Positions 1,374-39,326 of a stretch of DNA of 64,000 bases are shown in pieces; within the stretch, counting starts at the first letter, position 1, and each line of letters opens with the position of its first letter. The DNA comes from a virus (Duplodnaviria; Heunggongvirae; Uroviricota; Caudoviricetes): IMG/VR virus record IMGVR_UViG_2681813318_000003; one strand, 5' to 3'. The position numbers and the translations under genes are program-made. Below the pieces are notes generated by a model. That model did not search any database. It was not told the origin of the DNA and saw nothing but the letters and a program-made list of their open reading frames with translations.

Positions 1374-1847
1374 TTAACCTCTCGTAAATCCGGCTTTTCT
1401 GGCAGCCTCAAGAATCGCTTCTGAGAACTGCTTCTCGCTAATTTCCACCGCTCTTTCCAGAAAGTGTGGCCCAACACGGGGTTTAACACCGGCAATTGGT
1501 GGGTTTGTCACGTTCTTCATTCGAGAAAGATAACCGAGTCGGTATTTACCCAGCTCCATGTACTTAGCATAGTCACCTACTTCTACGCCCGGATGCCCCT
1601 GACGTGGTTTTGCTCCAGACACAGAAAGCTCAATACGCAGCCCTGAATAACCTTCTTTAATCACCCTGGCAAAGATGGCTGTCTCCAGAGATCCGGTTTC
1701 CAGCGGGGCCATTGCACGGCTGAAACGCTCAACCAAACGCGCCAGCTTTTCCATGTCCCGAATAAGATATCGCTTAAATGCTTTCTGGCTGTTGTTGAGT
1801 CTATTCCCCGCACGTTTGAACTGATGCGCATCGTATTTCAGACCCAT
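1374..1847 (-). CDS. Head-tail joining or tail component (HK97 gp10-like, tentative)
   Basis: 157-aa ORF in the conserved position between head-closure genes and the tail terminator. Confidence 0.35.
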   Translation of the reverse strand: MGLKYDAHQFKRAGNRLNNSQKAFKRYLIRDMEKLARLVERFSRAMAPLETGSLETAIFARVIKEGYSGLRIELSVSGAKPRQGHPGVEVGDYAKYMELGKYRLGYLSRMKNVTNPPIAGVKPRVGPHFLERAVEISEKQFSEAILEAARKAGFTRG

Positions 1848-7978: not shown

Positions 7979-9235
7979 CTATCGAGAACCACCAAGAATA
8001 ACACGGTTTTTGACTGGATACCTACGATGTACTGGATAGCCCAATGCGTCTGCACTATGCTCAATGCCACCTGTCTTATCCATATCTCGTGTTCCAGGCT
8101 TGTAGATGACTTTTTCCAGTGAATCAATCAAATGCTTGCACTTCGGATCGATATACAGCCGGATATCTCCAGATGCGGTCATCAGCATTCGGTTAACAGC
8201 ATTAACACGATCCGCAATTGGCGGGTGCTTTTTCGAATAATCGACACGTAAGAATCCCTTCTCTTTGAATATGTCGACGTCAGACTCCCCGCGAGCATGT
8301 TGGCGATAAGCACCTGCCGGATCTGGAAATATCGTTATCTGTGATTTCCAGCGCCAGAAGCGTCTCTCAAGCTCATCACAAACCTCTGCCGTGTTAGAGG
8401 AAAAGAGCACCAATTCATCAATTGCCCATAGTTCACCATTTGGCTGAGGTTGCAAAATTACGGAAGACATCGGGTCAATGTTGAAGTCCTGCCCTACCCA
8501 TATAGGTAACCGAGGGTTGAACTGAAGCGGTTTTACATGCACGTTACGATCGAACGGGTAGTAAACGCGCCCGGACATGTTCTCAAAGCTGGCCAGGTAC
8601 TCCTGAGCGAACGATTTGGGGTCCATATCGTTCTTAGCAGCTTCAATTTCCGCCGTAGGTACAAACGGAGAATCGGCAGTTACAAACTGCCAGCTCTTCC
8701 ACTGTCCCTTTCTTTGCAGCTCTACGTTCTGGCCTATAGTCCACAGTTTGTGAAATTCCGAGAAGCCTTTTGGCGTACCAATGATCAGTGCACCGCCGCG
8801 TGTCGATGAAAGAGTAGGTCGTAACACCTTGTACCAAGTGTCAGCCTTCATATCCTGAAATTCATCAAGCACTACAAAATGCAACGCTACGCCGCGCAGA
8901 GTGTCAGGCTTATCAGCACCTTTGAGGGCGATCTCCGAACCGTTCTTCAACACGATTGTCATCGTGGTGTCGTTCTTTTTCCTAACCCACTTACGAGGCA
9001 GAACTTCCTGTAGATCGTCCCACAAAATCTGGCGAGCCATCTGGTAAGTAGGAGCGACATACCAGACCCTTTGCTTTTTTTCCTTTGCCGCCGCACGAAT
9101 AATAGTGGAGATCGACAACCGGGATTTTCCCCAGCGTCGACCAGCACAAACAACTTTAAATCGATGCGGAGACTGGAAGACTTTCATCTGTCCAGAATGC
9201 AGTTGCACAAGACTGAGCGAGGACGGGATTGCCAT
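7979..9235 (-). CDS. Terminase large subunit
   Basis: N-terminal Walker A-like VVCAGRRWGKS, ATPase plus nuclease size class, start overlapping the stop of the upstream small-subunit gene. Confidence 0.7.
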   Translation of the reverse strand: MAIPSSLSLVQLHSGQMKVFQSPHRFKVVCAGRRWGKSRLSISTIIRAAAKEKKQRVWYVAPTYQMARQILWDDLQEVLPRKWVRKKNDTTMTIVLKNGSEIALKGADKPDTLRGVALHFVVLDEFQDMKADTWYKVLRPTLSSTRGGALIIGTPKGFSEFHKLWTIGQNVELQRKGQWKSWQFVTADSPFVPTAEIEAAKNDMDPKSFAQEYLASFENMSGRVYYPFDRNVHVKPLQFNPRLPIWVGQDFNIDPMSSVILQPQPNGELWAIDELVLFSSNTAEVCDELERRFWRWKSQITIFPDPAGAYRQHARGESDVDIFKEKGFLRVDYSKKHPPIADRVNAVNRMLMTASGDIRLYIDPKCKHLIDSLEKVIYKPGTRDMDKTGGIEHSADALGYPVHRRYPVKNRVILGGSR

Positions 9236-24155: not shown

Positions 24156-26189
24156 TTACTTAACCTGGTGGCCAGGTTTAGCACCAGCATCCGGGCTTAA
24201 CAGGAAGATATCTTTCCCGCCGGGGCCAGCAGCCATCACCATGCCTTCAGAGATACCGAAGCGCATTTTACGCGGAGCCAGGTTAGCCACCATAATTGTG
24301 TGACGACCAATCAGTGCCTGTGGGTCTGGATAAGCAGAACGGATGCCTGAGAAGACATTACGCTTTTCACCACCGAGATCCAGCGTCAGGCGCAGCAGCT
24401 TGTCAGAACCTTCAACAAACTCTGCGTTTTCAATCAGCGCCACGCGCAGGTCAACTTTAGCGAAGTCGTCAAAGGTGATGGTTTCCTGAATCGGGTCGTC
24501 TGCCAGTGGGCCAGTTACCGGTGCGGCTGTGGCTTTCACTTCTTCTTTGGATGCTTCCACCAGTGCTTCCACCTGTTTCATATCGATACGGTTATACAAT
24601 GCCTTGAACGGATTCACTTTATGGCCCAGCAGCGGTTGCTGGATACCATCCCAGGTCAGTTCTGTATTCAGGAATGCTTCTGCACGTTCAGTCAGTTTCG
24701 GCAGTACCGGTTTCAAGTACGTCATCAGCACGCGGAACAGGTTAATGCCCATAGAGCAAATCGCCTGCAGATCGGCATCGCGTCCTTCCTGCTTCGCCAC
24801 CACCCACGGAGCCTGTTCATCAACATAGCGGTTAGCCAGGTCAGCCAGTGCCATGATTTCACGGATAGCTTTACCAAATTCGCGGCTTTCCCATGCTTCG
24901 CCAATCACTTCAGCGGCATCAGTAAAGGTTTTGTACAGTTGCGGGTCAGCCAGTTCGCTTGCCAGCACGCCGTCAAAACGCTTGTTGATAAAGCCTGCAT
25001 TACGGGAGGCCAGGTTAACCACTTTGTTCACGATATCGGCATTCACGCGCTGAACGAAATCCTCCAGGTTGAGATCGATATCATCAATGCGCGAAGAGAG
25101 TTTCGCAGTGTAGTAGTAACGCAGGCTGTCGGCGTCAAAATGATTCAGCCAGGTGCTGGCTTTAATAAAGGTGCCGCGAGACTTGGACATCTTCGCGCCG
25201 TTCACCGTCACATAGCCGTGAACAAACAGGTTGGTCGGCTTGCGGAAGTTGCTGCCTTCCAGCATGGCAGGCCAGAACAGGCTGTGGAAGTAAACAATAT
25301 CTTTACCGATGAAGTGGTACAGCTCGGCGGTGGAGTCTTTCTTCCAGTATTCATCGAAGCTGGTGGTATCGCCGCGCTTGTCGCACAGATTCTTGAAGGA
25401 ACCCATGTAGCCAATCGGCGCGTCCAGCCAGACGTAGAAATATTTGCCCGGCGCGTTCGGAATTTCAAAACCGAAGTAAGGCGCATCGCGGGAGATATCC
25501 CACTGTTGCAGGCCGGATTCAAACCATTCCTGCATTTTGTTCGCCACCTGCTCCTGCAACGCGCCGCTGCGGGTCCATGCCTGCAACATTTCGCTGAAAG
25601 AAGGCAGATCAAAGAAGAAGTGTTCGGAATCACGCATTACCGGGGTAGCGCCAGAAACCACCGATTTCGGCTCGATCAATTCAGTCGGGCTATATGTTGC
25701 GCCGCAGACTTCACAGTTATCGCCGTATTGATCTGGCGCTTTACATTTCGGGCAGGTGCCTTTTACAAAACGATCCGGCAGGAACATGCCTTTTTCCGGG
25801 TCGTACAACTGAGAGATAGTGCGGTTTTTAATAAAACCGTTCTCTTTCAGGCGAGTATAGATAAGCTCAGACAACTGACGGTTCTCTTCGCTGTGCGTCG
25901 AGTGATAGTTGTCATAGCTGATGTTAAAGCCTGCGAAATCAGTCTGATGCTCATGACTCATTTCGCCAATCATCTGCTCCGGTGTGATACCAAGCTGCTG
26001 TGCTTTCAGCATGATCGGCGTACCGTGGGCATCGTCGGCACAGATGAAATTAACCTCGTGGCCGCGCATTCGCTGGTAACGAACCCAGACATCAGCCTGG
26101 ATGTGCTCCAGCATATGGCCGAGGTGGATTGAGCCGTTAGCGTACGGCAGCGCGCACGTCACCAGAATTTTCTTCGCGACTTGGGTCAT
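24156..26189 (-). CDS. metG: Methionine--tRNA ligase (host-type)
   Basis: 677-aa protein starting [31 protein letters not shown], class I HIGH motif, zinc knuckles CPKC/CEVC, KMSKS motif. Near-identical (a handful of substitutions) to Escherichia coli MetG as recalled from memory, not from a database search. The longer ORF to 26318 is an upstream read-through. Confidence 0.95.
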
Positions 26190-26346
26190 AGTAGGCATTA
26201 CTTCTTTGTAGTGAAAAGGGGCTTGATAGTAACAAAATGGCCTTATGTCTGCCATGTGATAACAGCATTTCTCATAAATGATTAAATGTCGTAGCTGGAG
26301 TACACTACAAGGCGACAATTGCGCAAATTAAAATAAAGGAGACGGG

Positions 26347-27447
26347 ATGAGCGAGTCCAAATCGCCGGATGCCCTGAGAGCAATGGTAGCCGGTACGCTG
26401 GCTAATTTTCAGCACCCAACCCTGAAACACAACCTGACTACGCTTAAAGCGTTACACCATGTTGCGTTGATGGATGACACACTGCATGTCGAACTAATCA
26501 TGCCTTTCGTGTGGAATAAGCCTTTTGAAGACCTGAAAGAGCAATGTAGTGGTGATCTGCTCCGTATCACTGGCGCAAAGGCTATTGACTGGAAGCTGTC
26601 GTACAACATTGCCACGCTTAAGCGCGTCAAAAACCAACCAGGCATTAATGGCGTTAAGAACATTATCGCCGTCAGCTCAGGCAAGGGCGGCGTGGGTAAA
26701 TCCTCCACGGCGGTAAACCTGGCACTGGCGTTGGCTGCTGAAGGTGCGAAAGTTGGTATTTTGGATGCCGATATCTATGGTCCATCAATTCCAACCATGC
26801 TGGGCGCGGAAAACCAACGTCCAACCTCACCTGACGGTACTCACATGGCACCTATCATGTCTCATGGCCTGGCAACCAACTCTATTGGTTATCTGGTCAC
26901 CGACGACAATGCAATGGTGTGGCGTGGACCGATGGCCAGCAAGGCGCTGATGCAGATGTTGCAGGAAACTCTATGGCCTGATCTGGACTATCTCGTTCTC
27001 GATATGCCGCCGGGCACTGGTGATATTCAGTTGACGCTGGCGCAGAACATTCCTGTAACTGGTGCGGTTGTGGTAACTACGCCGCAAGACATCGCGCTGA
27101 TCGATGCGAAGAAAGGCATTGTGATGTTCGAAAAAGTCGAAGTGCCGGTACTGGGTATCGTCGAAAACATGAGTGTGCATATTTGCAGTAACTGCGGTCA
27201 TCACGAGCCAATTTTTGGCACCGGTGGCGCACAGAAACTGGCCGAGAAATACAACACGCAGTTGTTAGGCCAAATGCCACTTCATATCTCTCTTCGTGAA
27301 GATCTGGATAACGGAACACCAACCGTTATTAGTCGTCCAGATAGCGAATTTACGGCTATTTATCGTGACCTCGCAGATCGCGTTGCTGCCCAAATGTATT
27401 GGCAAGGTGAAGTAATACCTGGCGAAATCGCATTCCGCGCAGTGTGA
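26347..27447 (+). CDS. apbC: Fe-S cluster carrier ATPase Mrp/ApbC (host-type)
   Basis: 366 aa, P-loop SGKGGVGKS, CxxC motif ICSNCGHHEP; divergent from metG with a 157-bp intergenic region as in the enterobacterial chromosome. Confidence 0.95.
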   Translation: MSESKSPDALRAMVAGTLANFQHPTLKHNLTTLKALHHVALMDDTLHVELIMPFVWNKPFEDLKEQCSGDLLRITGAKAIDWKLSYNIATLKRVKNQPGINGVKNIIAVSSGKGGVGKSSTAVNLALALAAEGAKVGILDADIYGPSIPTMLGAENQRPTSPDGTHMAPIMSHGLATNSIGYLVTDDNAMVWRGPMASKALMQMLQETLWPDLDYLVLDMPPGTGDIQLTLAQNIPVTGAVVVTTPQDIALIDAKKGIVMFEKVEVPVLGIVENMSVHICSNCGHHEPIFGTGGAQKLAEKYNTQLLGQMPLHISLREDLDNGTPTVISRPDSEFTAIYRDLADRVAAQMYWQGEVIPGEIAFRAV

Positions 27448-27484: not shown

Positions 27485-27874
27485 CTACATCACGGGACAA
27501 TCATCAAACTCGCCACTTCTTGCGTCGTTGATAATGTGAGTGATCACACCAAACACGGCATTGCTGCCCGTGCATCCATCGTCATCCTTTGGCAATGCTT
27601 CCTTCTTACCGGTTCTTAAATCCTCCAGATGCTGACGTGGGTACTTCCGGTATCTTTTTACGCGATATTCCCCACCCAGAGCGCATACAAGCAGAGAACC
27701 ATCAACCGGGGTAAGTGAGGAATCGACCACCAGCAATGCACCCTGTAATATTCCCTCACGATGATGACTATCAGCTGCCCTCATGAAGTAGGTCGCTGAA
27801 GGATGTCTAATTATCTGCTGATCAAGAGAAATACGGCTCTCAGCATAATCCGCCGCAGGAGAAGGGAAGCCCAT
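27485..27874 (-). CDS. UmuD'-like peptidase S24 protein encoded in pre-processed form (HumD-like)
   Basis: Starts MGFPSPAADY, corresponding to UmuD residues just after the Cys24-Gly25 autocleavage site; HPSATYF motif; Ser (ADSH) and Lys (RVKRYRK) of the catalytic dyad present; in-frame TAA five codons upstream excludes a longer N-terminus. Confidence 0.8.
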   Translation of the reverse strand: MGFPSPAADYAESRISLDQQIIRHPSATYFMRAADSHHREGILQGALLVVDSSLTPVDGSLLVCALGGEYRVKRYRKYPRQHLEDLRTGKKEALPKDDDGCTGSNAVFGVITHIINDARSGEFDDCPVM

Positions 27875-29559: not shown

Positions 29560-30256
29560 TCTGCGACTCCTGCGGAGGTTCTGGTAGCGGCATCCAATGG
29601 GTTACGTTGCTAATCAGTCCATATTCATTAGTTTGAGGATGGCCGCCGCGATCGTCTCCGTATTTAAAACTTTCCATAAAACCATAATGCTTACCCCCAT
29701 TAACGCTCACAAAGCCGTAATAAGCTGGTATAACGCCGATCTCACACGTAATCAGCAAAGGAAAACCAGTTCTCCAATTTAGCTCGCCGATTACAGGCAT
29801 TCGCTCACTACAGCTTATCCAGCTATCCTTAATGCCACTATCTTGACTCTGAAGCATGGCGGCACGACAGGCGTTCCAGCCTCTCACCTCTGCAATAGCG
29901 GCAACAGCATCGACCGCGTACATTTTAAGAGGGTTAGGCATTGGTTTTTCTTCAGGTACTACTGGAATGGGTGGGGCGGCGTAGACCTCAATAATTCCAT
30001 TATCAATAGGCCATTCTCCATCCTTGAGGTAGTCACTTGTGCCGTCAACTTGCTGTTCTGCAATGTGGAATGCACCTATTGGTTTTGCCTCAAGCGAGGC
30101 CAGTGCAATTCGTGCCAGTTCTAGATCTCGTTCAACCATCTCAAGAACAACTTTGCAGTCCGCACCTTCTTTGCTAACACGTCCTTTCAAGTTTTCCAGA
30201 TAACTAACGCTTTCGCGTGCATGGGAGATTAACTGTTCTTTGGTAAAGGTGGTCAT
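29552..30256 (-). CDS. DUF551-like phage protein (tentative)
   Basis: C-terminal GDDRGGHPQTNEYGLISNVTHWMPLPEPP resembles the conserved C-terminal motif of DUF551 proteins common in enterobacterial prophages. Confidence 0.35.
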   Translation of the reverse strand: MTTFTKEQLISHARESVSYLENLKGRVSKEGADCKVVLEMVERDLELARIALASLEAKPIGAFHIAEQQVDGTSDYLKDGEWPIDNGIIEVYAAPPIPVVPEEKPMPNPLKMYAVDAVAAIAEVRGWNACRAAMLQSQDSGIKDSWISCSERMPVIGELNWRTGFPLLITCEIGVIPAYYGFVSVNGGKHYGFMESFKYGDDRGGHPQTNEYGLISNVTHWMPLPEPPQESQSE

Positions 30257-30444
30257 TAGGCAGCTCTCTCAACAACAAGCAATTCGTCGTAGTCATAATC
30301 AGTTTCGGAGCCATCCGTACCGAACAGAGTCACTTTGTCACCGTCCATCCAGAAAGATTTAACCGCACATTGTTGACCTTTAGATGTTATGACCACATCA
30401 CCAGGTATTACGTCCTCAGCGCGAACTTCTATAGTTCTCATCAT
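30256..30444 (-). CDS. Hypothetical small protein
   Basis: ORF 30256..30570 trimmed to the internal ATG (MMRTIEV) that abuts the upstream stop. Confidence 0.3.
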
Positions 30445-30764
30445 GCTGATCCCTCTTTCTCTCCCCGGATAATTCTGTTGCACACATCCACGCACTCGTC
30501 GCAGATAAAAACGGCGTCCCCAGCAATTAACTTTTTGACGGCGTGCTGGGATTTGTTGCAGAAGCTGCAATAAAGCGTTCGCCTAACGGATACGGATGGT
30601 GCGCCAGATGTCAGCCGCGCCATATCGTTCTTGCGGCGCAACATCACACGGCTGAACTCAACCAGTTTCTCTGGGGATATCTCCTCCTCCGTAGCTAGCG
30701 TCTCTAGTCGTTCGAGTATGTGGAAGGCTTTTTCCTGGGTAATTGCAGAATGCGATGTGGTCAT
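30441..30764 (-). CDS. Small protein with ClpX-type C4 zinc-binding domain
   Basis: [36 protein letters not shown] closely parallels the ClpX N-terminal zinc-binding domain ([36 protein letters not shown]); no AAA+ module follows. Confidence 0.55.
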
Positions 30765-31106
30765 CTTCTTTCACCTTAATTTTCGACACGATCATGATTT
30801 AGCCAAAATCCACCATCCCGAAATGAGTGCATAATCTGACCAACATGAGTGAACAATCCCGTTCTCCTGTTGCTGATTCTTGTCCATTGCAAGACTCGAG
30901 GGTCGTTTCTACGAACTAATAGAATCTTTGCTTTACGGTTTTTCATCGTTTTGCTCTCCTGCGTTTCTTTGCTGCACGCCGAGCCGCCGCGATACCAGTA
31001 CGACGCTTTGATGCAGGAATACCGGTTCCATCAGAAAAGACATGCGACTTTATGAGTGATGTTGACGCCCAAAGGCGAATTGGGTGTGGAAGCAAGCCGA
31101 AGAACA

Positions 31107-31353: not shown

Positions 31354-31803
31354 TCAAACTCCTTTGCGAAGCTCAGCGGCGAAGGCTACTGCGTGATCAT
31401 GATGTTCAAGTGTGTATGCATACTCCGCAAACATCTCCACGCCCTGCGCACGTACTTCAGCCAGAAAAGCATCGGTGGCTGGAGTCTCCGTCAATTCGCT
31501 AACCCAATTATCTCCGTGTTCCTCGGCACACATCGCATCGAATGCTCGCTCAGATTCTTTCAGGGCTGCATTCTCCGCCGCTAATGCGTCTCTTTGCGCC
31601 CGCAACTTCTCAATTTCGGCAGCCATGTAGTAACCAACCATAGCGAAGACGGCAAAAGAGTTGTCTGCCTCATCAGGCGACACTGAGGCCATTAGCAGGC
31701 CATCGTAAAAATCGTGACTCCCATTGGTGATCGCCACCGCATAGGAGTCGTGGTTCTCGCGCTTGTGAATGAGAACTACGGGATTTTCGATTTTGTTACT
31801 CAT
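31354..31803 (-). CDS. Hypothetical protein
   Basis: 149-aa ORF; conserved start context AGAGAAAAACACATG; inverted class A motif about 70 nt upstream. Confidence 0.4.
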   Translation of the reverse strand: MSNKIENPVVLIHKRENHDSYAVAITNGSHDFYDGLLMASVSPDEADNSFAVFAMVGYYMAAEIEKLRAQRDALAAENAALKESERAFDAMCAEEHGDNWVSELTETPATDAFLAEVRAQGVEMFAEYAYTLEHHDHAVAFAAELRKGV

Positions 31804-31941
31804 GTGTTTTTCTCTTCTTTGCTGTTACATAAGCACTACCAAGTGCTGGTTTATTTTCACAAATAAGAAAATGTAGAAAACAATTTATTTAAGGCCATAA
31901 GTTATGGCCTTTATTTATTCATGCAGAAGGATTTGTAGCGC

Positions 31942-32322
31942 CTAATTGCCGGATAAAATGGGTTGAGGTGCTTGCCAGTAAGCTCCACCGTCCCATGTGA
32001 ACCCCATGCGAATAAGAGTGTTTATTGCGGCTTTGGTAGACTCTGATTCGACGCTGACTTTTCGAAACTCTTGAACCTCTTTCGCCAACTTGTATGTAAT
32101 TGTGCAGGGGACGATTGCAGCCCAGCCTTTCTCATGACTGTTAATGACCATCTGGATGTGACCATCCAGAATAGGTTGATTAGGCATGTTATTGAAAACG
32201 TCTGCCTGTTTTTGAATGTGAAGAAAAAGCCTTGCCAGCGCCATTTGCTCACTACGAGACAAGGGATTATCAAGAGGACTTTTTGCAAAAGCTGCTATAC
32301 GCTGTGCATCAATGCCAAACAT
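31942..32322 (-). CDS. Hypothetical protein
   Basis: 126-aa ORF, start coupled to the stop of the upstream gene. Confidence 0.35.
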   Translation of the reverse strand: MFGIDAQRIAAFAKSPLDNPLSRSEQMALARLFLHIQKQADVFNNMPNQPILDGHIQMVINSHEKGWAAIVPCTITYKLAKEVQEFRKVSVESESTKAAINTLIRMGFTWDGGAYWQAPQPILSGN

Positions 32323-33026
32323 CAGCGCACCTCACCATCTTTATGGCTGGAGTTAACTTCCGCCATTAAATGTCTGACGTAATCGACAAGAGAGCCATCT
32401 GGTGGAATCTGGCATTCCTCAACTAACTGGAAGTAGATATCCGCTGCATTACGTGTATTACTACCCGCGCATATTCTTTCTTCCCGAAGTGCATGAAGCT
32501 CGTTGATCAAACGGTCACACTCTCCGTTACGCTGATCCACAACGGCCTCAAGCTCTGCGACGCGTTCACCTGGCGTCTTACCTTCTTTGCGTTGGATGGT
32601 AACGACGAAATCGCCAATTGCAGGGACGTTGTAATCCAGCTCAAGGTAGTTTTTGGCACCGCTGCGGACGAACTCACCCGCGAACATGGTGGCGAACATC
32701 GCAGAGGCCACTTCGCCGTTGAAAAGTGACTCCAGATCTAACGGAGTCCCGGCAGCAAGAGCCTCTTTTGCTGTATCCATTGCATCCATGAACCGATCAA
32801 ACTCACTAGCGCGCTTTTCCAGGTCTTTCCATTGCTCGCTCCAACGTTTGGCAACGAAGTCTATGAATGTTTTCGCGGATTCATCAAAATCCCCCTCAAA
32901 CTTAACGATGCCTTTATCAATAATGATCTGGCCTACCGCATCCTCTGCATAACCTTTCAATGTAAACTTGAAAGGAAAATCAGAATGGCCTGTGACGTTA
33001 AAATGCTCTAACTGGAGGTTGTTCAT
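32322..33026 (-). CDS. Hypothetical protein
   Basis: 234-aa ORF; start context GAGAAAAACACATG. Confidence 0.4.
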   Translation of the reverse strand: MNNLQLEHFNVTGHSDFPFKFTLKGYAEDAVGQIIIDKGIVKFEGDFDESAKTFIDFVAKRWSEQWKDLEKRASEFDRFMDAMDTAKEALAAGTPLDLESLFNGEVASAMFATMFAGEFVRSGAKNYLELDYNVPAIGDFVVTIQRKEGKTPGERVAELEAVVDQRNGECDRLINELHALREERICAGSNTRNAADIYFQLVEECQIPPDGSLVDYVRHLMAEVNSSHKDGEVR

Positions 33027-33087: not shown

Positions 33088-34773
33088 TCATTTAACGCAT
33101 TTGAAAACGTATACGCTGACTGTGATCCCTGTGTCTTCAAACTCGTTGGTAAACGACTTCCCTCTGGCATAAACGTAATTATCCATCGTCATCCAGTCCA
33201 GTATTGGCGCAGTGCCCGGCAATACTGCTACAAGACGCCCGCCGACTTTCAGATGCCCCAGCGCAGCCAGCGTGTGCTCTCTATGACGACCAAGCGAGTA
33301 CGGCGGGTTCATAACGATTTTGTCGAACTGATAACCTGCGTTGTCCTCAGACCACTTTATGAAGTCGCAGCAAATCGTGTTCGTATACCCTTTTCCACGC
33401 AGGATATCAGCGAAGAGAGGTGCGATTTCTATGCAGGTAACATCTTCCAGATCGGCGTTAATATAGGCCAGAAGATCCCCACGTCCGGCTTGAGGCTCCA
33501 ACAGCTTCTCACCAGGCTTCAATTCAGTGGCTCTGGCAACGTACTCAGCAATCAAGCGTGGGGTAGGGTAGAACTGGTGTGATTTTGTATCCGGTATTAA
33601 ACCGGTAGCCACAATCGTATTTAGCGTATGGCCGATCTCATACGGGAACTGCCAGTGCTTTTTCTCCTGCACGCCGCCAATGAAGCTCAGTGTGCGCTCA
33701 AGCTCTTCCACCTGCGACTTCTGGAGAGCTGAATCAGAGAAGTACCATACGCCTTTGTCTTTGCTCAATCGCCCGTCACGAAGCGCAGTGCGAACCGGCA
33801 TGGAGATCGTCTTCTGGATTAACCCGAACTGCTTTGGTGCCCGTGTTTTTGGCGCAGTTCGGCATGGCGCGGGAATTGCAGCAGGCATACTGTAAGCCAG
33901 CACCTCATTCAACTTCCAGGCCACGTCAGGATGTATTTCAAAGTGAACGTTGCCGTTCTTGAACATCTTCACGCGCATCAGATTTCCATCGACGTTCATC
34001 CAGTCACCGGTCTGGCAGTCGTTTGCCCGATACGCAGCTGATAGCACCTCAGCAGTGCGGTTGATGGTAATAAATTCTTTGTGCGCGAAGAAATGAAGCA
34101 AGACACGCAGATCGTCGATGTAGTCCTCTTTGCGATAGTTCACGCTAACGCTGTCCCGCCAGAAATCAGAAATGCAGTCAGCGATTATCAGACGCTCGCT
34201 GAAACCGTTTGTCTTATTTGTCTTGTGCGCAGGACTCAGCGCCTTAAACAAGCCATACACGCGCTCAGAGAGATATTTGTGCCTGTCATTCAGCAAATTA
34301 AGCATCGTGGGTATGACCGTTTCTGCTTTGAACTCCGGTACACCAACGAACTCTTTAACCTTCATCTGGTAGCCGGTTCTGTCAGTTTTGATGACTTCCT
34401 GTTTGCCCTCTATAAACTGCTCGCGCCACTCATCTCGACGGGAAGCTGGCATGATCAGCAAAACGTTAGTCATATCCGTGACCTTCCTCCAGTACTCGGC
34501 CCAAATATTCTGTTTCACCCATTCCAGATCGACTTTATCCAACCAACCTCGATTTAAACGCGAGCGATCTTCATCTGGTCGATGGTTTAGTCGCAGCAGG
34601 CGATTAATCATGTTGTGGCGTTCGTCGCCATAAACGAAGTCGTGTACCTGATACATGAAGGCGATCTCTTTCTCGCACTCGGCCACGATTTCGTGGATGA
34701 CATTCATTTCCTGACGATAGTCGATAGCCGTGTTTGAGCTGGCATCGTCGATGATGGAAAGGGCTGTATTCAT
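33088..34773 (-). CDS. DNA N6-adenine (or N4-cytosine) methyltransferase with large N-terminal domain, orphan
   Basis: C-terminal SAM-binding LLEPQAGRGDL and catalytic IVMNPPY; 561 aa; no restriction endonuclease partner nearby. Confidence 0.6.
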   Translation of the reverse strand: MNTALSIIDDASSNTAIDYRQEMNVIHEIVAECEKEIAFMYQVHDFVYGDERHNMINRLLRLNHRPDEDRSRLNRGWLDKVDLEWVKQNIWAEYWRKVTDMTNVLLIMPASRRDEWREQFIEGKQEVIKTDRTGYQMKVKEFVGVPEFKAETVIPTMLNLLNDRHKYLSERVYGLFKALSPAHKTNKTNGFSERLIIADCISDFWRDSVSVNYRKEDYIDDLRVLLHFFAHKEFITINRTAEVLSAAYRANDCQTGDWMNVDGNLMRVKMFKNGNVHFEIHPDVAWKLNEVLAYSMPAAIPAPCRTAPKTRAPKQFGLIQKTISMPVRTALRDGRLSKDKGVWYFSDSALQKSQVEELERTLSFIGGVQEKKHWQFPYEIGHTLNTIVATGLIPDTKSHQFYPTPRLIAEYVARATELKPGEKLLEPQAGRGDLLAYINADLEDVTCIEIAPLFADILRGKGYTNTICCDFIKWSEDNAGYQFDKIVMNPPYSLGRHREHTLAALGHLKVGGRLVAVLPGTAPILDWMTMDNYVYARGKSFTNEFEDTGITVSVYVFKCVK

Positions 34774-34920
34774 AATTACACCATTAAATAATTTGTTTTC
34801 TTATTGGTGTAATTATCGCAAACTTGAAAAGGCATAAAAGCTGCATTCATAGGCGTTACAGCAGATTTAAGGCGTAAAAATGGGGGCTTTCGCCCCCTGT
34901 CGACTTGTGCGGTATTAGAA

Positions 34921-35484
34921 TTATGCGTATTGCGTTTTGTGCGGTTGCTTATTCAAGTCGTGGCGATGCGTAAGCTCCCGCATCATGTCTTCAAGCCGAC
35001 TTTTCGTATCATCAAGCTGGTCGGCCATTGCTCCCAAAAGCTGGCGAACGGCCATTGGATCGTCACTGTTTAGTGATGGCATTTTATATCCCGCTTTAGA
35101 AGACATAAGATTGATTGCAGACATCAACATCGTTAGAGAAGACTTAAGTCCGGCAATTTCACGATCTTTGCTGGCAATAATCGTCTCACTATTGTTACCG
35201 TCATGGGTTCCTTGAGTCTCGCTCACCATATCCAAAGTCGCCTGCAACTTATTAGCGCGCTCTTTTTCAGCAAGATAATGAACACCGAAATGGTGTGCCA
35301 AAGCTACAACCTGAGTTGGCTCTTCAAAGGTGGAATTAAAATTAAGTACTGTAAACAGTCTCTCAAATATAGAAACGTCTTCTGTTCCCCGAACAATGCC
35401 TAACATTTTGACAAGTTCATTAGCATCCATTTCTTCGAATAGGGCGTTTTGTTCATCAGCTATTGCTTTGCATTTCTCGCACAT
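34921..35484 (-). CDS. Hypothetical protein
   Basis: 187-aa ORF with start context AAGGAAAACACATG and a class A motif upstream. Confidence 0.4.
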   Translation of the reverse strand: MCEKCKAIADEQNALFEEMDANELVKMLGIVRGTEDVSIFERLFTVLNFNSTFEEPTQVVALAHHFGVHYLAEKERANKLQATLDMVSETQGTHDGNNSETIIASKDREIAGLKSSLTMLMSAINLMSSKAGYKMPSLNSDDPMAVRQLLGAMADQLDDTKSRLEDMMRELTHRHDLNKQPHKTQYA

Positions 35485-35781
35485 GTGTTTTCCTTAATGC
35501 TTAAACAAGTTGTTTTCTAATTGGATTTATTGTGATGTGGCATAAAAGGGGAGCAAGCTAAACGTAAAGGTGCAAACTCTCTATTTCGGTCAACGAAACA
35601 CAAGGGCCATTTGGCCCTTGTCATTAACACGTTGCTTTACGGACTAGCGGATAAGCGAAGTAGATCGCCAGGCCAATGAGGACGCCATCAGAAATGACAG
35701 ACATCATCTTTCCCGTAAAATCCACCAACACCGCCATCACCAGAAGAGCAATGACGGTCACAAGCCGGAATCTCTCAAGCA

Positions 35782-36207
35782 TTAGAGATAAGCATCCAGT
35801 GACAACTGAAGCGCCTGGGCTATCTTTTTCAGCGCCTGCTCTTCTTGTTCTCCAATACCGTCTTGGTCGGCAATATCAAGGCACAGACACAGAACATCGA
35901 CCGCCTCTGGAGTACCCGCAATATCAGACAGCTCACGAATAGCCTGTGCATTAGCAGAACGAGGGGACGCTTCGTAACGAGCACGGATATTGGCGCTCAT
36001 TTGGGCAATTTCACCAGCAAACGGAGAAAACGCAGGCAGAGCTGCAATTGTCTTCTCAAGAATGGCAATTTCTTTTGCGTCACATGTGCCGTCGGCATAG
36101 GAGATCATGTACGCGCCCCACACGGTGGCCTCAACCGCATCACGGTTCTCCATTTTTTTGACTTCAATAACAGCTTTACGAGTTTTCTTTTTGAAGAAAC
36201 CTAACAT
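35782..36207 (-). CDS. TerB-like domain protein (tentative)
   Basis: YADGTCDAKEIAILEKTIAALPA segment resembles the TerB fold signature; class A motif upstream. Confidence 0.35.
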   Translation of the reverse strand: MLGFFKKKTRKAVIEVKKMENRDAVEATVWGAYMISYADGTCDAKEIAILEKTIAALPAFSPFAGEIAQMSANIRARYEASPRSANAQAIRELSDIAGTPEAVDVLCLCLDIADQDGIGEQEEQALKKIAQALQLSLDAYL

Positions 36208-36300
36208 GTGTTTTCCTTTTATTATTTGTCAGAACAAGTTGTTTTCTAGTTTCATAAATTGCTTGCGCAAAGATGGTCAATGCATATGCACTAACAACCG

Positions 36301-36489
36301 TCAGAAATAACCAAGTACCGAACCAACTGGAAAAACAAAAATCCCAACTACACGAGCCAAGGTCATGCCAGCCTGAAACTGGAGATCACCAGAGCAAACA
36401 AGTTTTATAATGTTCGATACCCAACCGGCGGCCATGAGGGCCAGAATTGCCAGCCAAATTTTTCCAAAGTGATTTGAAAACCAGTTCAT
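36301..36489 (-). CDS. Small two-TM membrane protein
   Basis: 62 aa with hydrophobic stretches IWLAILALMAAGWV and VVGIFVFPVGSVLGYF. Confidence 0.4.
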   Translation of the reverse strand: MNWFSNHFGKIWLAILALMAAGWVSNIIKLVCSGDLQFQAGMTLARVVGIFVFPVGSVLGYF

Positions 36490-36737
36490 ACAACCGCCTT
36501 AGTCACAACATGATCCTGAGTAACTGGATGAACTTGAGGTATCGCATCCACCGTCATCCCATCCAGAGTGACAGGACGCTCTACTGGAGTGGTGGTAATT
36601 GTCGTCGACGGAGGTGTGGTGATGGATGAATCCGGCATCAAAAGGCTCTGGCCGGCTGGAACAGCTACCGTCGCCAGTGAAACTATAATGAGAACGTAGG
36701 CCATTGGTTTCAGCCTCTTTCTTTGAAAATTTTCCAT
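36486..36737 (-). CDS. Small signal-anchored Pro/Thr-rich protein
   Basis: 83 aa, TM segment MAYVLIIVSLATVAVPAG, SD AAGGA before ATG 36737; lies in a different frame inside the longer ORF 36499..36993. Confidence 0.4.
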   Translation of the reverse strand: MENFQRKRLKPMAYVLIIVSLATVAVPAGQSLLMPDSSITTPPSTTITTTPVERPVTLDGMTVDAIPQVHPVTQDHVVTKAVV

Positions 36738-36993
36738 TCGAACTGTCCTTGTTGTTTTTCTCCTTCACTAAAGGCCGTGCATTTTTCGCTTGGTGTGAAG
36801 AACCAGAGGTAACAATCGCCCCCACGTTCGCAACAACTGACGCTTGCTTATCTAAACGTTCATTCAGCAACCGAACGGTAGTCTCCAGTTCATCAAGACG
36901 TGACAGAACACGACCGCTAAATAATTCGGCCAAAATTTGACGTAGTGAACGAGGACGTTTAGTTGCAGAAGTGAAATAGGTTTGACGTGCCAT
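36499..36993 (-). CDS. Hypothetical protein (extent uncertain; overlaps the 83-aa gene out of frame)
   Basis: 164-aa ORF with SD GGAG before ATG 36993; C-terminal half is low complexity, so either the real gene ends early or this is an embedded-gene arrangement. Confidence 0.25.
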   Translation of the reverse strand: MARQTYFTSATKRPRSLRQILAELFSGRVLSRLDELETTVRLLNERLDKQASVVANVGAIVTSGSSHQAKNARPLVKEKNNKDSSNGKFSKKEAETNGLRSHYSFTGDGSCSSRPEPFDAGFIHHHTSVDDNYHHSSRASCHSGWDDGGCDTSSSSSYSGSCCD

Positions 36994-37138
36994 GTGGACT
37001 CCATCCAGTGTCAGAAAGAGTTGCGGCTGGCGATTGCCAGCCGCCTTTCTCGTTCCATCCTGGAACTGTGTCTTACCGACACATTGTCATCCTGACGCCG
37101 ATAAGATACATGATTTAATATGATAGGTAAACACTTAC

Positions 37139-37732
37139 TTACCACTTGTTGTAAATAAAACCAATGTCTTTCTTGTGAGGCGTATCGGCTGCGGAAAAAG
37201 CTGCGATCTTCGCGAGTCGATCACATATTTCATTTTCACGATGCCCGGCGTGACCTTTAACCCACTTCCAGCGAACATTATGTCGACTTGCGGCCTCATC
37301 CAGACGTTTCCACAGATCAACATTCTTTACCGGTTTTTTATCAGAAGTCATCCATCCATTACGTTTCCACCATTTCATCCACTGTGTCATGCCGTTTTTC
37401 AGATACTGGCTATCAGAGTACAAAATAACGTTGCATGGATATTTCAAACGCTCCAGCCCGATAAGTGCGCCCATCATCTCCATGCGGTTATTGGTGGTGC
37501 TATGAAAACCATCTGAGAACTCGCGTTCCTCACCACGATACTGGAGAACGATACCGTAACCGCCCGGGCCACCCGGATTTTTAAGGCAAGAGCCATCACT
37601 AAAGATTTTCACGGTTTTGAGCTGGGGATTGAACTCTACGACAGGCGTTGTGGGATTGGTGCGGGGAGAATTTTTGTTTTTGTCTTTTTTGCGAGTTTTT
37701 GCTTGCGATCGGGCTGGTGTCTTCGTCGTCAT
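37139..37732 (-). CDS. Ribonuclease HI with basic N-terminal extension
   Basis: [58 protein letters not shown] align to E. coli RnhA catalytic motifs; start at ATG 37732 with SD CAGGAG. Confidence 0.85.
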
Positions 37733-38316
37733 ATAAACTCCTGAATCAATCGCCGCGCCGATTTTTTTTCCTCGCGCGTGCGCACACGCGTGCGTGTTAA
37801 TAATTATTAAAATAAACAAATTACTTCCCAGAACAGGTTTTTATAAACCTGAACTGAACGAACGAAGTGAGTGAAGTTCACCTCGAACGAAGTGAGAGGT
37901 TGTCTTTTCAGGTAATACTCTCCCAGGGAGGTGAGTATAAAATTCCTCACCAACCTGGTCGTTTCATAACCTGAAAAGCTATGGTCTAAGTCTACTGCCA
38001 GCTTAGACTTGGGAAGTTATGGATGACAGCACCCCAGAACCGAGATCTTCCCACACTTTATGAAGGGGAGTACTGGATTCAACCTCTCGAAACACCCCAG
38101 ACTCGACAATCATAAAGTGACCCTTGTCTCTGCTCACTTTGGTTCCCCCTTCCCCGACACCTATACGGCACCGGTTCTACGCTGGTAGTGAGCTTTTTTA
38201 AACCTGACGCCAGTGACGCTTACCCCCACCCATCAGGTCGAGCCTCCAGTCTACGACTGGAAACTATCATATCTTAGCACTTACAATTCACTTTATGAAT
38301 AGTTTGTACTTATCTA
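37733..38316. other. About 580-bp non-coding region with multiple inverted repeats (candidate structured RNA or cis element)
   Basis: No ORF; alternating GC tract CGCGCGTGCGCACACGCGTGCG, GAACGAAGTGAG direct repeats, CTCCCAGGGAG and TAAGTCTA..TAGACTT palindromes. Confidence 0.3.
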
Positions 38317-38547
38317 TCATTGTGATTGATTATTTTCTCGACCATGTAGTTGAACATTCAAGGCAAACACCTCATTGATCAACTCACCTAAAAGCTGTTC
38401 AACAAGTTCGCGATGCTCGCCAAGATGCAAGCACTTAATTGCCCACTCGTACAAGTTGAAAGCCTGCTCACGATCTTTCATCATTTCACGAGCCTGGGCC
38501 AGAAAATCGCTCTCTACGAGCGCAACGACATTAGTCGGGTATGACAT
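38317..38547 (-). CDS. Hypothetical small protein
   Basis: ORF 38317..38571 trimmed to ATG 38547 (MSYPTNV) with SD AAGGA. Confidence 0.35.
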   Translation of the reverse strand: MSYPTNVVALVESDFLAQAREMMKDREQAFNLYEWAIKCLHLGEHRELVEQLLGELINEVFALNVQLHGRENNQSQ

Positions 38548-38653
38548 GTTGGTTTCCTTAAAGTGGTTCATAAAATCGATTTTAAAGCGTCTGGGAAGGG
38601 GTTCTAGTGGATTCTGTAGTGATGTTCAGGTCTGGAGTCTCTGATACAAAACA

Positions 38654-38710
38654 GCCTGCTTCCGTATATTAATAATTAATATGTAGTTATTTATATATAC
38701 AGAAGCAGGC
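38654..38710. terminator. Long AT-loop hairpin (bidirectional terminator-like), paralog of 9982-10040
   Basis: GCCTGCTTCCGTATATT..TTATATATACAGAAGCAGGC. Confidence 0.45.
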
Positions 38711-38732
38711 TAATTACAGACGCCAGAACAAA

Positions 38733-39326
38733 CTAAGCAGCCTTCTTTGATGGTCTTTTTTTCCTGATCACATTCGCAGGATCATACCCTCCCAGACTTT
38801 TCATGACGTCCAAAGGGATCTTGCTTATAGAGTGCCCAGCGTCCTGACAGAATCCTCGAAAAACAACGAGCATACTGCCACCGGGGTTGATGTTTACTTC
38901 TACCTGACCCAAATTGACGTCAGGCTCGACAAACGCTACGCGGCCACCAGACAGAATAATCGTCTCATTCGCACACTCTGTTGCACGCTCATACCACTTT
39001 GTATCGAGGGATTGAGGAATTAGCATCACTGTTGTAACTCCGCGAGCCTGCTCACGTATAGCCGCATCAATCCAGGGGGAGATTTTGGAGTAGGGTGGAT
39101 TGAGGAAGGCAATTGTACCTGGCTGTCCCCATTCAGATTTCAAAGCATCACGCTCAACGCCTATGAAAATAGGCAGCTTTGCGTTGTCCTTGTTGCAGGC
39201 AACGTCAACATCAAATGTCACTCCAAGATAACGTTGAATGGCAGAAAACAGCCAATCAGGTGTTCTCCAGAGGTCACGAAGAGAGTTGTCGCGCTTTCGC
39301 TGTTTGATTTTTTCGGCTGCAATCAT
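38733..39326 (-). CDS. Phage-type Dam-like DNA N6-adenine methyltransferase, orphan
   Basis: 197 aa with FLNPPYSK catalytic motif; size and layout of the small phage Dam family. Confidence 0.6.
   Translation of the reverse strand: MIAAEKIKQRKRDNSLRDLWRTPDWLFSAIQRYLGVTFDVDVACNKDNAKLPIFIGVERDALKSEWGQPGTIAFLNPPYSKISPWIDAAIREQARGVTTVMLIPQSLDTKWYERATECANETIILSGGRVAFVEPDVNLGQVEVNINPGGSMLVVFRGFCQDAGHSISKIPLDVMKSLGGYDPANVIRKKRPSKKAA

Follow-up and report, generated by a model that had tools for sequence, protein, structure and literature searches.

The window analyzed here, a 64,000-nucleotide (nt) stretch of IMG/VR virus record IMGVR_UViG_2681813318_000003, belongs to an SSU5-like phage-plasmid of Escherichia coli and carries a small gene whose product joins an N-terminal helical hairpin to a C-terminal zinc-binding domain (ZBD) of the kind that ClpX bears at its N-terminus. 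The features of this gene are collected in Table 1; coordinates refer to the whole stretch, and ClpX residues are numbered from Met1. The region is 95-97% identical to phages PhiR41_1, CMS-2020a and Cyrano and, to the same degree, to ~106-120-kb plasmids such as pEC881_2. SSU5 itself lacks the ZBD gene, and only positions 32378-32847 of the window match it. The ZBD gene lies within a long leftward operon in which small early-type 'ea' genes are closely packed. Its Shine-Dalgarno sequence overlaps the TAA stop (30778-30776) of an upstream open reading frame (ORF) of 56 amino acids (aa), and the ATGA overlap at its other end predicts translational coupling with the 62-aa ORF that follows, the stop of which overlaps in turn the start of a DUF551 gene. 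No promoter-like site was found directly upstream of the ZBD gene by consensus scans. Further upstream, 138 nt separate the genes at 31942..32322 and 31354..31803, and this gap contains a perfect 9-bp stem-loop (AAGGCCATAAGTTATGGCCTT, 31891..31911). No other sizeable intergenic structure occurs in that stretch of the operon, and the scan called the stem-loop a terminator on the plus strand only.

Table 1. Features of the ZBD gene and its surroundings in the window.
Feature	Position	Strand	Basis or remark
Two-domain protein gene, complete, 107 aa	30441..30764	-	ATG 30764-30762, TGA 30443-30441; ORF list
Shine-Dalgarno sequence AAGGTGA, 6 nt before ATG	30771..30777	-	Direct sequence reading
N-terminal region, residues 1-52, helical hairpin	30609..30764	-	Helices 10-26 and 31-52; acidic tip T25-E26-E27
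Linker, residues 53-64	30573..30608	-	Low confidence; length varies between subfamilies
ClpX-type C4 zinc-binding domain, residues 65-104	30453..30572	-	Pfam, PDB phmmer, Foldseek, residue table
Downstream 62-aa ORF, PHROG 15283, function not assigned	30256..30444	-	ATG overlaps the TGA of the ZBD gene (ATGA)

The identity of the C-terminal domain was established by profile, sequence and structure comparisons. The Pfam profile zf-C4_ClpX (PF06689) matched residues 65-100 over positions 2-38 of its 39 with an E-value of 4.3e-17 and a score of 62.2 bits (cut-off 27). A phmmer search against the PDB retrieved the ClpX ZBD (2ds5/1ovx, E~8e-17), aligning residues 62-102 without a gap onto ClpX 11-51, where 30 of the 41 residues are identical to those of E. 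coli (73%). The zinc-ligand positions C66, C69, C88 and C91 form a CxxC-x18-CxxC pattern, and all four cysteines are kept in each of the 33 family members on which our residue table is built. An AlphaFold2 model, which was computed from a 39-sequence alignment, gave a mean predicted local distance difference test (pLDDT) score of 80.5 with a predicted template modeling (pTM) score of 0.37, so low that the domain-to-domain orientation is unreliable, and pLDDT values of ~85-89 across the ZBD. Foldseek superposed this part of the model on 2ds5, 2ds6, 2ds8 and 1ovx with root-mean-square deviations of 1.5-1.7 Å over 36-38 residues at a probability of 1.00, which fits the treble-clef fold of the solved ClpX ZBD. 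The likeness is far beyond chance, and this is a genuine zf-C4_ClpX domain. The sequence-only reading of this locus had claimed a match of the C-terminal ~40 residues to the ClpX C4 domain including all four cysteines, and the Pfam search that it proposed as a check, the PDB comparison and the superposition all agree with it. Its further claim that the ZBD stands without an AAA+ module was borne out as well: the protein ends at residue 107, five residues past the ZBD helix, and the NCBIfam ClpX equivalog models TIGR00382 and NF003745 reached only 45-46 bits against cut-offs of 359-371, matching model positions 4-48 alone. The protein is not a ClpX. The ZBD of ClpX is an obligate dimer formed through its C-terminal helix and hairpins (PMC5890618), and the phage domain is probably a zinc-binding, dimeric copy of it.

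A hydrophobic pocket of the ClpX domain, described around F16 and I46 (F17 and I47 in Met1 numbering), binds λO, trigger factor, SspB and RssB according to mutagenesis and nuclear magnetic resonance data (PMC7804408), and binding of the antitoxin MqsA needs L12, L13 and H23 in overlap with the site for the SspB tail (PMC8808172). In the window protein, L64, F68, H74 and I98 occupy the positions of ClpX L13, F17, H23 and I47. Across the family, F17 is kept in 33/33 members, the L13 position is hydrophobic (L, I or F) in 33/33, and the I47 position holds I or V in 30/33; H23 is retained in 20/33, the window copy included. V34, I36, V41, C44 and I48 are invariant or nearly so. The pocket thus appears largely, if not fully, kept, a pattern compatible with binding of ClpX clients but no proof of it. 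A separate observation concerns the copies at 8001..8333 of two closely related P88-like prophages (our loci L004 and L008), in which the hairpin is nearly identical and the ZBD surface differs by H23T, K27L, A30T and F35C. The ratio of nonsynonymous to synonymous substitution rates (dN/dS) between these two is 0.63 for the ZBD and 0.47 for the hairpin, which suggests that the ZBD surface has diversified or recombined.

The N-terminal region gave no significant match in Pfam or NCBIfam; the lone Pfam hit, RIF2_ASCE at E=0.045, was below threshold. The model predicts helices of 17 and 22 residues with pLDDT of ~84-91 over residues 10-52, followed by a segment of low confidence (mean pLDDT 61 over residues 51-60), where the family alignment contains indels in the linker region. 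The hairpin is conserved across three subfamilies, namely the window type, the P88 type (~50% identity) and that of the protein P0122. Residues E11, K12, R19, E21, E26, E27, R43, R44, D47 and L51 are invariant, and the tip T25-E26-E27 is invariant or nearly so, in an alignment that is shallow, no window-type member being less than 64% identical to the window copy. When a profile of the hairpin was searched against 1.84 billion representative proteins, only 10 hits were returned, of which 8 were members or truncated copies of the same two-domain family and the remaining two were repeat or low-complexity proteins. The hairpin thus appears to be an orphan domain, never occurring without this ZBD in that collection. 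Residues 40-47 of helix 2 (window region 30765..30570) form an invariant motif, (V/I)x(L/I)RR(K/E)xD, that loosely resembles the ClpX-binding tail ALRVVK of SspB (MG1655). L42-R43-R44-K45 was considered as an XB-like tail and retained only as a weak lead, pointing to self-binding or to binding of the ClpX ZBD, since it shares only L-R with that tail and sits in a confidently predicted helix.

The ZBD region was compared with E. coli clpX at the nucleotide level, where identity amounts to 65% overall and 49% at third codon positions, as against 73% for the amino acids, and the same codon is used for only 13 of the 30 identical residues. Within the family, pairwise dN/dS ranges from 0.14 to 0.63 for both domains and is below 1 in every comparison, indicating that the gene is under purifying selection. 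From the third-position divergence together with the low dN/dS, it follows that a ClpX-like sequence has long been kept by selection and is not a recent fragment. A recent capture or pseudogene of host clpX was rejected on the same figures. The related explanation that the gene is a non-functional remnant of a captured clpX, devoid of activity of its own, has in its favor that the protein recognizably resembles only the first 50 residues of ClpX. It is effectively refuted by an intact ORF with a Shine-Dalgarno sequence, the fusion of the ZBD to a conserved non-ClpX domain, synonymous sites that are saturated relative to clpX while the protein is conserved, the dN/dS values, and the presence of the gene in three phage lineages and 218 E. 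coli genomes.

The distribution of the gene was traced further. Grouping at 90% identity sorts the full-length homologues into ~30 clusters, whose members come exclusively from Escherichia or Salmonella, and the protein matches PHROG 6797 (function not assigned) at E=5.6e-58, with residues 1-106 aligned to profile positions 1-106 of 107. Three types of element carry it: SSU5-like phage-plasmids, the P1-like phage-plasmid D6, in which it adjoins an Ead/Ea22-like gene, and P88/186-like prophages of the P2 family, where it closes the early operon, preceded by gpA-ParM-ParR and followed by the portal gene. By blastn, 218 of 5,426 complete E. coli genomes (~4%) contain it, with 125 of the places on chromosomes and 106 on plasmids. 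Every copy among the matches listed bears the PGAP/RefSeq name 'ClpX C4-type zinc finger protein', while older records call the protein 'carboxylate--amine ligase'. An all-against-all BLASTP of the neighbors in the SSU5-like, pEC881_2 and P88-like contexts revealed no conserved partner gene, and the neighbors differ by context save for a loose association with Ead/Ea22-type mosaic genes. The 62-aa ORF was considered as a partner and rejected, since another ORF intervenes in pEC881_2 and it is absent from the P88-like prophages. The gene is hence a mobile single-gene cassette that has moved horizontally, and its moving alone, without a conserved neighbor, fits a host-directed function. PADLOC-DB v2 assigned no family to the protein, to seven of its neighbors in the window or to two P88 genes, and membership in a known anti-phage defense system was rejected on this empty result. 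Other genes of the window were noted in passing. A full-length methionyl-tRNA synthetase with a C-terminal tRNA-binding domain (24156..26318, minus strand; tRNA-synt_1g, E=1e-165) lies beside a divergent gene for an ApbC/NUBPL-type Fe-S cluster carrier ATPase (26347..27447, plus strand), and both are annotated alike in pEC881_2. Also present in the same leftward array, at 33088..39326 on the minus strand, are genes for a 561-aa DUF4942 protein, a TerB-like protein, an N-terminally extended RNase H and a Dam-type N6-adenine methyltransferase.

We favor, tentatively and at a little under even confidence, the reading that the protein mimics the ClpX N-domain and competes for the adaptors and substrates that depend on this domain, withholding them from ClpXP. 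The fold, the zinc-ligand residues, the retention of most pocket residues, purifying selection, the mobility of the cassette and the absence of a conserved partner are established here, and the last of these suggests a host target. The sequence-only reading had proposed competition for ClpX adaptors and substrates or dimerization with host ZBDs. Our evidence agrees with this, and the mechanism is what we infer from it. In such a scheme, a small accessory protein of a temperate phage, made of the orphan hairpin and a copy of the ClpX N-domain without the unfoldase motor, would be produced as part of the phage-plasmid's long leftward operon and would act as a decoy, binding the tethering motifs by which N-domain-dependent adaptors and substrates dock. 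Candidate clients would be SspB- and RssB-type tails, λO-type replication initiators, MuA, UmuD/UmuD' and antitoxins such as MqsA. Substrates of the ssrA type bypass the N-domain and would be unaffected, so that the net effect would be a selective stabilization of N-domain-dependent phage or host proteins. The hairpin probably adds oligomerization or a second, specific binding surface. Free ZBD is reported to compete in vitro with ClpX for λO and MuA and for SspB (Wojtyra 2003; Thibault 2006). Short ORFs consisting only of a ZBD recur in unrelated phages, which we count for this reading. Published data show that degradation of λO is strictly dependent on the ZBD (PMC7804408), that UmuD', λO, MuA, FtsZ, SspB and MqsA are N-domain clients (PMC8808172), and that the isolated ZBD is stable, purifiable and able to bind XB peptides at 35-80 nM regardless of where in a polypeptide the motif is placed (PMC12373786).

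Several points weigh against the decoy. The L12 position, which is needed for MqsA, is T in 25 of the 33 family members, and H23 is lost in 13. The family departs from ClpX at G19 (to N, K or F), E24 (to A or T) and P32 (to D or E), and is variable at the K27, A30, Y35 and I47 positions. Cellular ClpX is nearly invariant at several of these, notably K27, A30 and P32, as judged from 38 cellular N-termini that form a biased sample, having been retrieved as hits to the query. A decoy would also have to reach a level comparable to that of the ClpX N-domains. Client binding by the phage protein is a prediction from sequence. Constraint on the hairpin is at least equal to that on the ZBD and in some comparisons exceeds it; between the window copy and that of L008, the proportion of nonsynonymous differences (pN) is 0.06 for the hairpin and 0.22 for the ZBD, so that the key activity may reside in the hairpin. 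Finally, zf-C4_ClpX also occurs in proteins unrelated to ClpXP, such as cyanobacterial sigma factors, of which it is an accessory domain (PMC11119718).

The last two points bear on a different explanation, in which the protein is a regulator independent of ClpXP, with the ZBD serving only as a zinc-stabilized scaffold for dimerization and peptide binding, as in CsfB (PMC5890618), for instance in acting on a sigma factor or on RNA polymerase. The conserved hairpin tip speaks for it, as does the overall layout, in which an acidic-tipped hairpin precedes a C4 zinc finger and a C-terminal helix, reminiscent of the secondary-channel factors DksA and TraR. We hold it to be unlikely, since the Pfam zf-dskA_traR and DksA comparisons were negative, the helices are about half the length of the DksA coiled coil, the ZBD is far closer to ClpX than is that of the anti-sigma factor CsfB (73% against ~20% identity), and the client-pocket residues are largely kept, more than would be needed of a scaffold alone.

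The many invariant charged residues of the orphan hairpin, which suggest a specific binding surface, fit a plug-in subunit. The phage ZBD would then form mixed dimers with the N-domain of host ClpX in place of homodimers, each replacing one ClpX N-domain partner and tethering the hairpin to the unfoldase, where it would, as an adaptor, recruit a specific phage or host protein to be degraded or remodeled, or block the pore as an inhibitor. An identity of 73-76% to the E. coli ZBD, the conservation of core and helix residues and the obligate dimerization of the ClpX domain (PMC5890618) agree with such an arrangement. Against it, positions 35, 43 and 47, which may lie in the dimer interface, vary within the family, and no candidate for a cargo gene is co-conserved with the ZBD gene. 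The ZBD dimers of ClpX are moreover stable and intramolecular to the hexamer, so that exchange may be slow. We regard this explanation as distinctly unlikely.

Returning to the decoy, we next consider which proteins would profit from it. Replication initiators are possible beneficiaries, as the P88-like gene follows gpA and, in Pseudomonas phage phi1 (KT887557, our locus L011), a 65-aa ZBD-only ORF (1504..1701) stands directly after a λ-type replication protein P and before ninG. This ORF of a D3-like phage independently places a free ClpX zinc domain beside replication genes. N-domain-dependent antitoxins such as MqsA are possible as well. A 129-aa S24 peptidase (Pfam PF00717) is encoded in the window at 27485..27874 on the minus strand, 2.6 kb from the ZBD gene, and its N-terminus, MGFPSPAADY..., starts where E. 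coli UmuD' starts after self-cleavage, so that it looks like a pre-processed protein of the UmuD' or P1 HumD type. UmuD and UmuD' are classic N-domain-dependent clients of ClpX, which makes the 129-aa protein a candidate beneficiary. CmdTAC-type defense was considered as a target and found unlikely, since CmdA is recognized by a C-terminal Ala-Ala degron that bypasses the N-domain. The position of the gene in P88/186-like prophages raises yet another use of the same decoy, namely as a factor that the resident prophage or phage-plasmid would express to protect the lysogen by blocking superinfecting elements in need of the ClpX N-domain, for example Mu-like phages, which require ClpX to remodel MuA. 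The stretch between gpA-ParM-ParR and the portal gene corresponds to the P2-type cargo region, which holds tin and old in P2 and serves P2-like phages as a site for anti-phage cargo. A hypervariable region of P2-like phages with a defense system has been mentioned (10.1101/2024.02.24.581848). With PADLOC empty for the protein and its neighbors, and with the window copy lying inside a long packed operon of 'ea' genes without a nearby promoter-like site of its own, such an exclusion factor seems very improbable.

The bare observation of the domain is not new, being implicit in the PGAP name, in PHROGs 6797, 12435 and 5259 and in existing annotations. The full-text literature searched, which covered few subscription-journal papers, yielded neither a functional study of a phage-borne, free ClpX zinc domain nor a described example of mimicry of a protease's own docking domain. 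As far as these searches show, the two-domain architecture with its orphan hairpin appears to be undescribed. ClpXP decides the fate of λO, MuA, antitoxins, UmuD' and, via RssB, RpoS, all of which matter to mobile elements, and a phage or phage-plasmid with its own free docking domain would have a simple and evolvable means of shifting the targets of degradation without shutting the protease down. Loss of MqsA triggers abortive infection. During restriction alleviation, ClpXP also acts on HsdR, a subunit of type I restriction enzymes (PMC12707154). The boldest statement would be that this is the first recognized virus copy of the docking domain of a host AAA+ protease, serving as a free decoy with a new hairpin effector that shields N-domain-dependent clients and spares ssrA quality control, a claim we consider rather doubtful. 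Were it true, the shielded clients would include the element's replication initiator, MqsA-type antitoxins and the UmuD'-like protein 2.6 kb away, and the gene would represent a new class of phage-encoded reprogrammer of proteolysis in ~4% of complete E. coli genomes. A true decoy would also explain the recurrence of ZBD-only ORFs in unrelated phages and, as a natural tool, would allow ClpXP proteolysis that depends on the N-domain to be told apart in vivo from that which does not. Should the action of the protein lie elsewhere, attention would shift to the conserved orphan hairpin. The domain call is routine, while the decoy idea is attractive, cheaply testable and unproven.

The protein was finally set beside known systems. 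It shares with the ClpX N-domain the same fold (1.6 Å), the same CxxC-x18-CxxC spacing, 73% identity and the residues of the F17/I47/L13/H23 pocket, and differs in that its ZBD is detached from the AAA+ ring, is C-terminal and is preceded by an unrelated hairpin, with systematic replacements of L12 by T, G19 by N or K, E24 by A or T and P32 by D or E. The ZBD-only phage ORFs (PHROG 12435, labeled 'protease', and PHROG 5259; 65 aa, in the Pseudomonas phages phi1 and PP9W2) are likewise free-standing and found in temperate phages, but they have no N-terminal hairpin and are ~50% identical to the window family in the ZBD; some are annotated as 'ATP-dependent Clp protease ATP-binding subunit'. PHROG 6797, to which the window protein belongs, is a separate two-domain family restricted to Escherichia and Salmonella elements. 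Four metagenomic proteins (P0035, P0038, P0061 and P0088; 115-131 aa) combine an N-terminal ClpX-type ZBD with a C-terminal CxxC...CxxC zinc ribbon and lack an AAA+ module, representing another uncharacterized architecture with a stand-alone ZBD. CsfB (Gin), the anti-sigma-G/E factor of Bacillus subtilis, is ~20% identical to ClpX, has a different interface pattern and surface and acts on sigma factors; its evolutionary relatedness to ClpX was doubted by the authors of the CsfB study (PMC5890618). The window protein, in contrast, is an unambiguous homologue of the ClpX domain. With DksA and TraR it has the general layout in common, although its hairpin is about half as long and its zinc domain is of the ClpX type; membership in that family was rejected, as no zf-dskA_traR hit was obtained at E<=1 and hhalign gave a probability of 10.6% against E. 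coli DksA. T4 PinA and T7 Gp4.5 are inhibitors of Lon, and IraP, IraM and IraD are anti-adaptors for RssB-ClpXP. No Pfam match to any of these families was present in the window protein. They are small proteins that alter the targets of a host protease, which is the role proposed here, but they bind the protease or its adaptor by unrelated folds, whereas the window protein is proposed to mimic the docking domain of the protease. If the decoy is true, the phage inhibitors known for Lon would gain a counterpart directed at ClpX.
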